Made by a program: the position numbers and the translations under genes. A stretch of DNA of 64,000 bases from Candidatus Sungiibacteriota bacterium (GTDB taxonomy: Bacteria > Patescibacteriota > Minisyncoccia > Sungbacterales > HO2-52-23), in contig JACPBG010000002.1 in NCBI GenBank assembly GCA_016180435.1, positions 60,342 to 124,341 of the forward strand, given 5' to 3'. Of the stretch, positions 47,262-63,850 are shown one piece after another (position 1 is the first letter of the stretch; the number at the start of each line of letters is the position of its first letter). Under the pieces are notes generated by a model that saw only the letters and a program-made list of their open reading frames with translations, made no database searches and was not told the origin of the DNA.

Positions 47262-47410
47262 GATAATTTCGATCAGCTTGCTGGTCGGTCATCATCGGTA
47301 GGTTCTCGACAGGCTCGAACAATATTTATAGTGAGCCGCGTCGAACTATTCTTCGAGCGAAGTCGAGAAGATACCTTTGATACCGACCTGCTTGCAGGTC
47401 GGAGGTTCAT
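47262..47410. repeat. Family F ~150-bp structured element (nested inverted repeats; terminal hairpin ccgacctgc-tt-gcaggtcgg).
   Basis: Second copy at 63700..63850. Confidence 0.7.
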
Positions 47411-47425
47411 TACGGGAATAATTTT

Positions 47426-49030
47426 ATGAAATTTACCGATGATTTTATGGGATTTTTTGGGAAAAGACCTCGTTTAAAGGTTCTTTTTGTAACTTCCGAG
47501 GAAACGCCATTTGCCAAAGTCGGGGGTCTGGGCGAGATAATGTTTTCTTTGCCGAGAGCTTTAAATAAATTGGGGCATGATGCGCGGGTCATGATTCCGC
47601 GTTATGGCACGATTGAACGGCCTTTTCCCCCGTTTAGCATGGAATATGAAGGTCTGGATGTGCCTACGGCTCCGGAACAAAGCGGTACGCGCTTGATTTG
47701 TAATGTGCTTCGTTATGATCCGACGGATGATCCGCATGCTCCAGCCATCACTTATTTTTTGGAAAATAAAGAATATTACGAATTACGCTCCAATATTTAC
47801 GGATACAAAGACGATGCGGTGCGTTTTGCGCTTCTTGCGCGCGGTTGTCTGGAATTTTTAAATTCCGGAGGCGGCTGGCTGCCGGATGTTTTGGTGGCTA
47901 CCGACTGGATGACAGGTTTTTTGCCCAATTTTTTGGCGACGGATTACCGCGAATACAAAAAATTGCGGAAAATTGCCAGCGTATTTTCTATCCATAATTT
48001 GAATTCGCAGGGGCCGCAGGGCGATCATAGATTCGTTCCGGAATCCGATCTGGATAACGGCTATGGATCCATGCCGGATTTTTTTGATCCGCGCATGGAA
48101 AATATCAATGCGATGCGTCGCGGCATTCTGTATGCCGATGCCATCAATACGGTTTCGCAGAAATACGCGCAAGAGATTATGACCGAAGAATTCGGTGAGG
48201 GTCTGGATGGAATTTTGCGCGAACGGCGTGATCGCATTTTCGGAATTTTAAACGGGATTGATTACGAAACCAATAATCCGGCCTCCGATAATTATTTGGC
48301 CGCTAATTTTTCCGTAAAAAATCTGGAACGAAGAGGCGAAAATAAAATATATCTGCAGAAACATTTTGGTTTGCCGCAGGGTCAGCAGATTTTTTTATCC
48401 GGAATTGTCTCGCGGTTAACAAGGCAAAAAGGGTTCTCGTTATTTCCGCAGGTCATAGAATCTTTTCTCAAAGAAACTCGGTCGCAGATAATAATCATGG
48501 GTACGGGCGAGATTGAAATCATGACCTATTTTCAGGATCTTGAGAAAAAATTTCCGGATCAAGTAAGGGTGCGTTTGCAATTTGACGGAATATTGCCCCA
48601 TTTGATTTTTGCGGGAGCGGATGTGGTGTTGGTGCCTTCTAATTTTGAGCCCTCGGGTCTTACCCAGATGGAGGCCATGCGTTACGGAGCTATTCCGGTG
48701 GCGCGTCGCGTCGGGGGACTGGCCGATACAATTGAAGATTTTAATCCGGAAACCCTGGAAGGAACCGGTTTCCTTTTCGATGAATTTAATCCCATGGCAT
48801 TTTTGATCGCGCTTATACGTTCATTCGTAAATTGGAAGCATCATGCATCCTGGCGAAAGCTCCAATGTTCGGCCATGGAGAAAGATTTTTCCTGGGAAAG
48901 ATCGGCTAAGGAATACGAACGTCTTTTCTATCTTGCCGCGGATTTTCATGCCAGAAACGGCATAAAACCGCGTTATATTCCTTCGGATACTTCGCATCAC
49001 TTGACTCATGGCTTGAAGCCGGATTTATGA
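47426..49030 (+). CDS. glgA: Glycogen/starch synthase (GT5).
   Basis: KVLFVTSEETPFAKVGGLGEIM (KxGGL motif). Length ~530 aa. Confidence 0.85.
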   Translation: MKFTDDFMGFFGKRPRLKVLFVTSEETPFAKVGGLGEIMFSLPRALNKLGHDARVMIPRYGTIERPFPPFSMEYEGLDVPTAPEQSGTRLICNVLRYDPTDDPHAPAITYFLENKEYYELRSNIYGYKDDAVRFALLARGCLEFLNSGGGWLPDVLVATDWMTGFLPNFLATDYREYKKLRKIASVFSIHNLNSQGPQGDHRFVPESDLDNGYGSMPDFFDPRMENINAMRRGILYADAINTVSQKYAQEIMTEEFGEGLDGILRERRDRIFGILNGIDYETNNPASDNYLAANFSVKNLERRGENKIYLQKHFGLPQGQQIFLSGIVSRLTRQKGFSLFPQVIESFLKETRSQIIIMGTGEIEIMTYFQDLEKKFPDQVRVRLQFDGILPHLIFAGADVVLVPSNFEPSGLTQMEAMRYGAIPVARRVGGLADTIEDFNPETLEGTGFLFDEFNPMAFLIALIRSFVNWKHHASWRKLQCSAMEKDFSWERSAKEYERLFYLAADFHARNGIKPRYIPSDTSHHLTHGLKPDL

Positions 49031-49052
49031 TTCCTGATTGTACGTTAATAAA

Positions 49053-61702: not shown

Positions 61703-63606
61703 AAGACATAGACCCCGATGAAATTTTCGTGGATTCGGTCAGCGTTTTGCGCAGCGATGCGGTTGGCGAGGGGAGGTTGGAGCATCCCATAACGCATTTG
61801 GGGCAGCTTTTTTTTATCTTGACGGCCGGAGCTGTTTTGGGATGGATTTTGCTTCGTGCCTGGCAGATAGGGATTGTTCAGGGGGATGAATTTTTGAAAA
61901 AATCCAGGGAGAATAGGTTTTTTGCCCGTTCGGTCCTTTCTCCGCGCGGCGTAATTTTTGACAGATTTGATCGGCCGCTAGCGGAAAATCAGCCGTCTTT
62001 CGGGATATTTTTTAACCGCGATGAATTTTTGCGTTCCGGCGCTTCGCTTGACGATATATTGGAGCGCCTTGCCAATATTTTGGAATTGCCTAAAGATTTT
62101 TTTTATGAATCAGGTTTTCCGCGCGGCGGACAGAATTTTGTGTTTCCGCCCCGGATATTTTTCGGCAGTGAATTTTCTTCGGAAAGAATACTTTCCCGTG
62201 CGGTTTTGCTTGAAGATATTCCGGGGGTTGAAATTGCCGAAGGATATAAAAGGGCCTATGGAGATTCTCCGGCGTATTCTCATGTATTGGGTTTTGTGGG
62301 AAGCGTATCTCCGTCCGATCTTGCCGCTCGTCCGGAATTAAAAGGCGCCGCCATGGTGGGCAGGGGCGGCATTGAGGCGTTTTACGACCGGGAACTTCGG
62401 GGAAAAGACGGGAAAAAGATCATTGAAGTGGATTCTGCCGGCCGCGAGACGCGTTTTCGTTTGACCGAAAATGCGGTTGCGGGATCGGGTATTTCTCTTA
62501 CGCTTGACGGGGCGCTGCAGTCCTTTATTTACGACACTCTTATGCGCTATACCCTCCGTCAAAACGGGGCGGCTGTGGCGGCCTTGAATCCTAAAAACGG
62601 GGAAATTTACGCATTGGTAAGTTTTCCGGGTTTTGACTCAAACCGGATCGGGAACTCTATTTCGCAGAAAGAATTTAATGAGATAGCCGCCGACCCCTTA
62701 AAACCCTTCTTTAATCGGGCGATTTCCGGGGAATTTCCTTCCGGATCAGTCATAAAACCGATCATAGGAGCAGCGGCATTGAGTGAAAAAATCATAGATC
62801 CGCAAAAAAAAATTTATGACGAGGGTTTTATTGCAATCCCTAATCCTTATAAACCCGGCGAGCGGTCTATATTCGTCGATTGGCGGCCCCACGGCTGGAT
62901 AAATTTTTATGATGCGATCGCGCAATCCGCCAACGTTTATTTTTATATGATCGGCGGCGGATTTGAAAGTCAGCCCGGACTTGGCATTGAGCGGATAAAA
63001 AAATATGCAGAAATGTTTGGTTTCGGATCGCGGTTGGGTATTGATCTTCCCGGAGAGAAGAATGGTTTGATTCCGGATCCCGAATGGAAAAAGTTTAATG
63101 AGCCGGTAAATCCTATTTGGCGGGTGGGAGATACATATAACGTATCCATAGGACAGGGCGGAGTCCGGGTGACTCCTCTGCAGCTTACCTCCGCAATTTC
63201 CGCTATCGCCAACGGAGGCACTCTTTGGAGGCCGTTCCTTTTGAAGAAAATTTTTAATCAGGACGGAAGCGTTTTGGAAGAAAAAAGCCCCGAAATTATA
63301 CGTGATGAAATCGTGCCGGAAGATGTTTTGCGCGAAGTGCGTCGCGCCATGCGCCAAACCGTAACTTCCGGTACCGGGAGGATTTTACAGGAAGTTCCGG
63401 TTGCGGTTTCCGCCAAAACAGGCACTGCGCAATCGGGCGAAGGCAAAGTGCCTCACGCTTGGTTTACGGCTTATGCCCCTGCGGATGACCCGGAAATCGC
63501 CATTACCGTTATGGTGGAGCATGCTGGGGAAGGATCAACGGTGGCAGCTCCGATTACCAGGGATATTTTGAGGTGGTATTTTGAGAATAGGAAACAGGGA
63601 AACTAA
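61687..63606 (+). CDS. mrdA: Penicillin-binding protein 2 (elongasome transpeptidase).
   Basis: N-terminal TM helix, SGSVIKP (SxxK), SAN (SxN), KTGTAQ (KTG). Confidence 0.85.
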   Translation: MAHKLKDIDPDEIFVDSVSVLRSDAVGEGRLEHPITHLGQLFFILTAGAVLGWILLRAWQIGIVQGDEFLKKSRENRFFARSVLSPRGVIFDRFDRPLAENQPSFGIFFNRDEFLRSGASLDDILERLANILELPKDFFYESGFPRGGQNFVFPPRIFFGSEFSSERILSRAVLLEDIPGVEIAEGYKRAYGDSPAYSHVLGFVGSVSPSDLAARPELKGAAMVGRGGIEAFYDRELRGKDGKKIIEVDSAGRETRFRLTENAVAGSGISLTLDGALQSFIYDTLMRYTLRQNGAAVAALNPKNGEIYALVSFPGFDSNRIGNSISQKEFNEIAADPLKPFFNRAISGEFPSGSVIKPIIGAAALSEKIIDPQKKIYDEGFIAIPNPYKPGERSIFVDWRPHGWINFYDAIAQSANVYFYMIGGGFESQPGLGIERIKKYAEMFGFGSRLGIDLPGEKNGLIPDPEWKKFNEPVNPIWRVGDTYNVSIGQGGVRVTPLQLTSAISAIANGGTLWRPFLLKKIFNQDGSVLEEKSPEIIRDEIVPEDVLREVRRAMRQTVTSGTGRILQEVPVAVSAKTGTAQSGEGKVPHAWFTAYAPADDPEIAITVMVEHAGEGSTVAAPITRDILRWYFENRKQGN

Positions 63607-63699
63607 AACACAAAACCCGTTAAGATAAATTCCTAATTATCTAATTGTCTAATTTCTAATAAAATGCCAAATTATAAAATTTTAACTTGCTAATTCCGA

Positions 63700-63850
63700 C
63701 TAGCTTGCTGGTTGGTTACAATTGGTAGGTTCTCGACCCGCTTCGCTCTCGCTCCAGCGAGGCGAGCAGGCTCGAACAATATTTTTCGAGCGAAGTCGAG
63801 AAGATACCTTTGATGATACCGACCTGCTTGCAGGTCGGAGGTTCATTTTA
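63700..63850. repeat. Family F element, copy 2, with a nested family B GC-palindrome insertion (63729..63772).
   Basis: Aligns to 47262..47410 except for the inserted cccgcttcgctctcgctccagcgaggcgagc and a ~25-nt deletion. Confidence 0.7.

Follow-up and report, generated by a model that had tools for sequence, protein, structure and literature searches.

Family F is a short structured repeat found twice in a 64-kb window of a Candidatus Sungbacteria genome (the window is the whole stretch of DNA analyzed, and all coordinates are window positions). We propose that it is a mosaic of DNA hairpins resembling the repetitive extragenic palindromic (REP) sequences and bacterial interspersed mosaic elements (BIME), and that its units are probably cognate to a small GIY-YIG nuclease similar to the Ssn nucleases. 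The core unit of F flanks small GIY-YIG genes from candidate phyla to Alphaproteobacteria, and F therefore looks like a nuclease-associated palindromic repeat. The tie of F itself to a nuclease is the step that we infer here. The analysis supports a mobile repeat and leaves the notion of a small RNA (sRNA) gene, raised in an earlier sequence-only reading of this DNA, unsupported.

Patescibacteria have small and tightly packed genomes, and the literature that we searched contained no description of their small repeats. Here, one lineage of this phylum has recently acquired numerous small palindromic insertions, some in intergenic spacers and others in frame within housekeeping genes such as those for a redoxin and for glutamate dehydrogenase. 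The core unit of F ties these insertions to a hairpin module that is common to distant phyla, where it stands beside small GIY-YIG genes.

Insertion of Family F in Two Intergenic Spacers

As the sequence-only reading had it, one F copy lies downstream of a PGI-family gene and the other downstream of mrdA; both proved slightly longer than first drawn (Table 1). Copy 1 stands between the PGI-family gene (46186-47247, stop) and the start of the glycogen synthase gene (glgA, 47426), and copy 2 between mrdA/PBP2 (61687-63606) and the start of a putative greA (~63982). An unrelated metagenome contig (L064) contains, at positions 135-268, a third, plain copy, which carries no insertion of the smaller family B described below. 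The adjoining mnmA gene of that contig (276-1337, - strand) contains an in-frame low-complexity stretch, KPETRNPKPETNSKSKIQN, apparently encoded by a repeat.

NCBI lists a protein identical to the PBP2 of the window under a Candidatus Sungbacteria metagenome-assembled genome. The nearest relatives found are Parcubacteria GW2011_GWA2_45_30-like contigs (glgA 92% and PBP2 79-89% identical), of which L141 and L143 were compared at the PGI-glgA site, and L147 and L148 at the mrdA-greA site. The PGI-glgA spacer measures 28 nt in the closest relative versus 178 nt here, F being the difference, and the mrdA-greA spacer 114 nt in two relatives versus 375 nt here, with a conserved promoter-like region of greA. 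Since F occupies neither orthologous spacer in the closest relatives, both copies are insertions. They appear to have entered the two spacers after the split from the nearest sampled relatives, and they are recent, non-coding, and intergenic. The earlier suggestion that these families are mobile thus agrees with the behavior of F and also with that of B, which is new in the redoxin gene. Moreover, an AT-rich inverted repeat (~63612-63665 versus 63861-63909; CTAATTTCTAAT / ATTAGAAATTAG and neighbors) has copy 2 at its middle, and the relatives lack it too. With B inside F, and F inside this inverted repeat, the locus is a palindrome in a palindrome in a palindrome. No flanking direct repeat is consistent among the three F copies, and the comparison with empty sites is ambiguous in such AT-rich sequence. 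Breaks of Logan unitigs within F were considered as a sign of further copies and set aside, the two known copies being enough to account for them.

A Mosaic of Hairpin Modules

F had been taken for one structured, repeated element. Structured and repeated it is, but it is not one unit: F is a mosaic, and the smaller hairpin modules in it occur alone in many phyla. At the ends stand two nearly identical hairpins of 9 bp, H1 and H3. They enclose a dimer (copy 2 and L064) or a trimer (copy 1) of a ~22-nt hairpin unit, with a stem of 4-6 bp that varies and a loop of 11-12 nt, GAGC-N3/4-GTCGA, that is conserved. The units lie inside a core with the edges GGTAGG...GATACC and are oriented unit(-)/unit(+) or unit(-)/unit(+)/unit(+), the dimer being head-to-head. 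The inverted repeats quoted earlier are exact and far exceed chance: the GGTAGGTTCTCGAC / GTCGAGAAGATACC pair has 4 matches versus 0.19 expected, and the terminal CCGACCTGC-TT-GCAGGTCGG hairpin 4 versus 0. Folding, which had been proposed as a check, places both copies far below shuffled sequences (-67 kcal/mol, z = -6.4 for copy 1; -75.6 kcal/mol, z = -6.7 for copy 2).

The core has an existence of its own. The L051 locus carries the same three-unit core with neither H1 nor H3, and thus shows that the core exists independently of the F ends; L001 and L092 also have the core and lack H1 and H3. In the middle unit of L051, a compensatory stem change (G-C to C-G) is seen. It had been thought that copy 2 had lost ~25 nt, but the difference is a complete extra hairpin unit in copy 1 (47327-47349). 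As L064 also lacks this unit and L051 has a three-unit core, copy 1 represents a unit gain or a variant form rather than the other copies a random deletion. At the ends, the L064 form of H1 is CCGACCAGC-TT-GCTGGTCGG, and a compensatory A-T/T-A swap distinguishes H1 from H3. RNAalifold favors one long hairpin, and this swap favors three local hairpins (n = 3 sequences). A reading by eye of the unit loop as a K-turn or T-loop was rejected: the minimal unit has no C-stem, and its flanks do not pair like a T-arm.

Table 1. Features of families F and B and of the hairpin unit in the window.
Feature	Coordinates	Strand	Remarks
Family F copy 1, 158 nt	47254..47411	+	PGI-glgA spacer; aligned with copy 2 and L064; missing from the orthologous 28-nt spacer of L141/L143
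Copy 1, terminal hairpin H1: TCGATCAGC-TT-GCTGGTCGG	47269..47288	+	differs from L064 by two C-to-T changes, with G.U/G.T pairing retained on the + strand
Copy 1, core hairpin GGTAGGTTCTCGAC ... GTCGAGAAGATACC	47297..47375	+	three units inside
Copy 1, unit 1: GTTC-GAGCCTGTCGA-GAAC	47302..47320	-	read on the - strand
Copy 1, unit 2: ATAGT-GAGCCGCGTCGA-ACTAT	47328..47349	+	extra ~23-25 nt of copy 1
Copy 1, unit 3: TCTTC-GAGCGAAGTCGA-GAAGA	47350..47371	+	includes the cross-phylum 19-mer TTCGAGCGAAGTCGAGAAG
Copy 1, terminal hairpin H3: CCGACCTGC-TT-GCAGGTCGG	47383..47402	+	
Family F copy 2, 167 nt	63681..63847	+	mrdA-greA spacer; missing from the 114-nt spacer of L147/L148
Copy 2, terminal hairpin H1: CCGACTAGC-TT-GCTGGTTGG	63696..63715	+	
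Copy 2, unit 1	63729..63777	-	family B hairpin in its loop
Family B insert, 30-nt GC hairpin CCGCTTCGCTCTCGCTCCAGCGAGGCGAGC	63738..63767	+	between CTCGAC and AGGCTCGAAC; no target duplication; not in copy 1 or L064
Copy 2, unit 2: TTTTC-GAGCGAAGTCGA-GAAGA	63783..63804	+	
Copy 2, terminal hairpin H3	63819..63838	+	with AGGTTCATTT tail, fits a simple terminator pattern
Second B copy (3 mismatches over 43688-43716)	43686..43715	+	adds ten codons (PLRSRESEAS) in frame to a redoxin/AhpC-TSA-like gene
Solitary hairpin unit TTCCC-GAGCCAGTCGA-GGGAC	31094..31115	+	

Spread and Covariation of the Hairpin Unit

The possibility that F is unique to its two loci and structurally unconserved is dispelled by the L064 copy and by a widespread unit whose stem covaries. 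The 19-mer TTCGAGCGAAGTCGAGAAG is present in at least 120 metagenome contigs, 11 viral contigs, and 3 metagenome-assembled genomes labelled Saccharibacteria, at loci whose GC content ranges from 0.3 to 0.7. Beyond these seed matches, 282 more units were counted in 925 kb versus ~28 estimated by chance. In the 79 distinct non-seed units, 81.6% of the stem cells are paired versus 61.1% in shuffles, double-sided stem changes amount to 116 cells versus 38.6, and the covariation score reaches 0.648 versus 0.251, a value attained by none of 500 shuffles, while the loop is invariant. The variable middle of the loop is often a C-GNA-G triloop (GAA in 69 instances, GCA in 15, GTA in 12, and GGA in 4). 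At seven low-GC loci (L019, L025, L031, L051, L054, L059, and L077), a whole hairpin is nested at this very position, which is also that of B in copy 2.

In high-GC genomes the unit takes the form CCGTTCG-unit-loop-unit(rc)-CGAACGG, where rc is the reverse complement, for instance on a Sphingobium megaplasmid, where it lies unannotated immediately 3' of an IclR gene. Inverted dimers are also found at L002, L003, L014, L151, and many high-GC loci, and the tags that flank the units vary by lineage (CCGTTCG, AATATT, TGTCAC). Units occur in both orientations and within open reading frames (ORFs). Indeed, 15 of 45 low-GC instances lie inside long open frames, and in other contigs of the candidate phyla radiation (CPR) units stand in frame in DHFR, MetRS, reverse-transcriptase, and PHP genes, as read from translations alone. 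A string search of the literature for the motif and for peptides (LSLSKG, FDKLRANG, and others) returned no match.

Some occurrences of the unit deserve separate mention. L147 holds, at ~4576-4610, a look-alike of the solitary unit of the window, with the same stem and a diverged loop (AGTTCCC-GACCATAGTGGA-GGGACT). In L015 (5850-5965), the unit and an 18-nt spacer form a head-to-tail array of at least three copies with a 37-nt period, which runs off the contig end. Five IMG/VR contigs (L124, L125, L127, L129, and L132), all high-GC prophage or gene transfer agent-like clusters, share the position of a single unit, upstream of a prohead-protease-like gene.

Association with Small GIY-YIG Nuclease Genes

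When the ORFs adjacent to the motif were clustered, one recurrent non-phage family emerged, that of small GIY-YIG proteins of ~85-95 amino acids (aa). Six GIY-YIG loci selected through the motif are flanked by units (L028, L061, L078, L084, L117, and L120), and so are 6 of the 11 loci picked by protein similarity alone (L152, L158, L162, L166, L170, and L174), against a background of ~0.07 units per kb. In Sphingomonas parapaucimobilis (L152), units stand on both sides of the GIY-YIG gene, and Erythrobacter (L174) presents a clean unit-gene-unit(rc) layout.

In Patescibacteria, all four GIY-YIG families have a unit within 100 nt. Directly 3' of the GIY-YIG gene, L158-L161 carry arrays of ATTGTTCGAG-N-CGAGAAC-tac units, and the flanks of these units agree with those around F unit 1. 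An 83-aa protein, identical each time, was encountered in at least three different contexts, its gene being followed by arrays of the ATTGTTCGAG type. A tRNA gene lies 37-64 nt upstream of the Patescibacteria GIY-YIG genes (L158-L161, L162, L166, and L170). A second copy of the tRNA 3' end is found beyond the GIY-YIG gene in L159-L161 and L166, as is the case for elements that integrate at tRNA genes.

On two Methylobacterium plasmids (L154 and L155), a different, related palindrome (CATCCTGAGG-hairpin-CCTCGAAGGAGG) stands on each side of the GIY-YIG gene, which suggests that this nuclease family has several motif classes. All GIY-YIG homologues carry the Pfam domain PF01541, and NCBIfam has no specific family for them. 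The COG2827/YhbQ literature yielded nothing useful.

Family B and In-Frame Insertions

The nesting of B within copy 2, claimed from the outset, is confirmed. B has the structure CCGCTTCGCTCTCGC-N4-GCGAGGCGAGC and occupies the loop of unit 1 in that copy. Orthologues of the redoxin gene that carries the second B copy lack the insertion, the gene being exactly ten codons longer here. B is a separate 30-nt hairpin, which landed in a unit loop in one case and in frame in a gene in the other.

A global alignment of 18 kb with L141 revealed further strongly folding insertions specific to the window. The glutamate dehydrogenase (gdh, 54016-55410) is 464 aa long here versus 419 aa in the relative and contains two GC-rich palindromic in-frame insertions of +22 and +14 residues (sites listed: 54152-54217, 54577-54618, and 54711-54755), as well as a CTAAGTTCT-type repeat in place of a short stretch (LSSKFLVLSSES). 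The 66-nt gdh insert folds as a three-way junction.

Comparison with Known Systems

The Ssn nucleases are single-domain GIY-YIG proteins that bind and cut single-stranded DNA (ssDNA) beside flanking hairpin repeats, NTS or SRM (Chenal et al. 2025, PMC11893778). The units described here are alike: a short hairpin repeat stands inverted on both sides of a ~85-95-aa single-domain GIY-YIG gene, as in the NTS-ssnA-NTS layout (PMC11893778), and the repeat is dispersed between genes across several phyla, with Alphaproteobacteria (Sphingomonadales) among the prominent hosts. On the other hand, the unit has a GAGC-N3/4-GTCGA loop on a variable stem, whereas the Ssn repeat has a CGTC-tagged stem of 7-9 bp, and PMC11893778 does not mention Patescibacteria, tRNA-adjacent cassettes, or loop nesting.

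REP, BIME, and REPIN elements fall into GTAG- and CGTC-tagged superfamilies and include intragenic REPs (Di Nocera et al. 2013, PMC3733652; Bertels and Rainey 2011, PMC3116915). Like them, F is built of palindromic units of 20-40 nt (~22 nt here) that form head-to-head or tail-to-tail dimers and larger mosaics, mostly downstream of genes and at times inside them, and their superfamilies likewise cross phyla. Unlike them, the unit has no unpaired GTAG or CGTC tag, no association with RAYT (REP-associated tyrosine transposase) was found among the ten window ORFs scanned or the recurrent neighbor families, and the copy number seen here, in only 64 kb, is low. An identity with the CGTC-tagged REPs was rejected because the intragenic peptides found here (..SSEVEK..) belong to a different sequence family from the CGTC peptides VIPAKAGI and SFPRKRES (PMC3733652).

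The in-frame cases, namely B in the redoxin gene, the two gdh insertions, and the units in the DHFR, MetRS, reverse-transcriptase, and PHP genes of the CPR contigs, recall the Rickettsia palindromic elements, which are also palindromic repeats in frame in genes that stay open. They differ by their length (30-66 nt versus 100-150 nt), by an unrelated sequence, and by the phylum. Finally, F shares with bacterial miniature inverted-repeat transposable elements (MITEs; Correia/NEMIS, RUP, ERIC, and Nezha) its size, terminal inverted repeats, strong fold, intergenic location, and probable co-transcription with neighboring genes. In contrast to MITEs, F has neither a target-site duplication nor a parent insertion sequence (IS) that could be found, and it is built of autonomous small hairpin modules.

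Alternative Explanations

F could instead be a functional structured RNA (an sRNA, a stabilizer in a 3' untranslated region, or a terminator) selected on the + strand, its repetition reflecting module reuse. The fold of the + strand is indeed ~8-11 kcal/mol more stable than that of the - strand, both window copies have the orientation of the genes that flank them, and H3 of copy 2 with its tail resembles a simple terminator. The three full copies also differ at five paired positions, all by C-to-U/T changes that keep a G.U pair on the + strand only, none being compensatory; such a bias, from five changes only (p ~ 0.03-0.06), is weak evidence for a strand-specific constraint. However, no promoter-like site precedes either window copy, the L064 copy is antisense to mnmA, and the same units lie within ORFs and in both orientations. 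Rfam gave no match at gathering score to F or its units in the window and 34 related loci, with hits to tRNAs only. Even at permissive E-values (up to 10; both copies and the GIY-YIG loci), only chance-level matches appeared, such as snoRNA-like ones or RAGATH-7, with 17 bits where the threshold is 112. The absence of F from the orthologous sites of close relatives means, moreover, that F is not a conserved gene or regulator. We thus regard a functional RNA as unlikely.

The outline of a classical MITE, with H1 and H3 serving as terminal inverted repeats for the DDE transposase of a related IS and a short AT-rich target being duplicated, fits the size of F (~135-170 nt), its intergenic location, and its presence/absence polymorphism. 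The arms at 63695-63716 and 63818-63839 form a 22-nt inverted repeat, 73% complementary, with counterparts in copy 1 and L064, and the relative L147 has an IS1595-family transposase. This IS1595 was nevertheless rejected as the parent of F, its ends being unrelated to the F ends (TTTAACTTG...CCGACC). No other IS was seen in the window, and none of the ten window ORFs scanned encodes a transposase. Neither copy, nor L064, shows a clear target-site duplication, and the core is found with neither H1 nor H3 in L001, L051, and L092. Besides, both F ends form perfect hairpins, and the difference between H1 and H3 is a compensatory swap, which argues for local hairpins rather than transposase-binding ends; a MITE is accordingly rather improbable. 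As for a strict REPIN, that is, an inverted REP pair moved by a RAYT (a Y1 transposase of the IS200/IS605 type), it would account for the inverted-dimer architecture and for insertion with no target duplication, and a GTAG does stand just 5' of the first unit (GGTAG directly followed by GTTCTCGAC). But this GGTA pairs with TACC and is not a free tag, and the conserved part of the unit is its loop, not a 5' tag. The recurrent neighbor is a GIY-YIG nuclease, with no Y1 transposase in the clustering of neighboring genes and no RAYT among the ten window ORFs scanned, so that a strict REPIN seems very improbable.

A Proposed Nuclease-Associated Route of Spread

We therefore return to a hairpin mosaic with nuclease-cognate units. 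By analogy with Ssn, the most likely mechanism for the spread of F would act at the level of ssDNA hairpins and be tied to an Ssn-like GIY-YIG nuclease. The units would be the cognate ssDNA hairpins of this enzyme, which, on ssDNA, would bind and nick beside the hairpin. Repair or copying may then spread units to exposed loops, to sites next to tRNAs, to AT-rich spacers, and to ORF positions that tolerate an insertion. Both F and B would be non-autonomous products of this nuclease-driven spread. Once inserted, F would be co-transcribed and might incidentally stabilize or terminate mRNA.

Several observations weigh against this proposal. No GIY-YIG gene is present in the 64-kb window or in ~60 kb of the relatives' contigs, so the nuclease link is made for this genome by analogy; the layout in which units flank the gene belongs to this unit class in other genomes and not to the window, and a nuclease role here is putative. 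The SRM pattern HGTCWYN(0-2)YYVSBRHN(0-5)WNVSBRGN(0-2)RNCYNB has 0 matches in the window, in L064, and in all the GIY-YIG flanks examined, and the nearest solved structures of the GIY-YIG proteins are UPF0213 proteins (1zg2 and 1ywl). The window holds only 2 F copies and 5 strict units, and the five stem changes that keep G.U pairing on the + strand fit an RNA-level constraint equally well.

A broader and more tentative view, which we consider possible but do not expect to hold in full, is that the GAGC-N3/4-GTCGA unit defines a second Ssn-type branch, from candidate phyla to Alphaproteobacteria and Bacteroidota-like hosts. The small GIY-YIG nuclease would there actively copy its cognate hairpin into hairpin loops (self-nesting), beside tRNA 3' ends, and in frame into genes, and might be a major driver of intergenic growth and of protein-insertion variation in small Patescibacteria genomes. 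If the nuclease link is true, the Ssn ssDNA-nuclease systems would gain both a motif class and a phylum, new nucleases with sequence specificity on ssDNA would become available, and one cause of assembly breaks and of variable protein length in CPR metagenome-assembled genomes would be explained.

Other Repeats of the Window

The window contains several additional repeats. A 52-nt GC-rich palindrome (GGCCGCCC.GCAGAG.GGGGCGAGCCTCGCCC..) occurs at 507-558 and 54570-54621 with 92% identity, both copies being within long ORFs (15-947 and gdh). A 36-nt GC hairpin (52575-52610) and a 160-nt structured stretch (50751-50910), both strongly folding, are present here and not in L141. Palindromes of the CTAAGTTCTAAG type, similar to the AT-rich inverted repeat around F copy 2, lie 3' of many window genes (for instance 116-188, 11229-11305, 12222-12311, 14595-14662, and 52458-52534). 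A 120-nt repeat is represented by two copies at 93% identity and a third, partial copy (10958-11077, 14068-14187, and 23888-23967), and two adjoining ~50-nt repeats (CAGTGATGCCAATCC..., ATTAGCAATTTGTAGATTAGC...) recur at 12953-13062 and 29547-29659, 16.6 kb apart, with 94% identity. Two paralogous genes (38635-40593 and 41377-43101; 652 and 574 aa) have no Pfam match, and their products start with a Cys-rich motif; a fragment of this paralogue family is present in L147.

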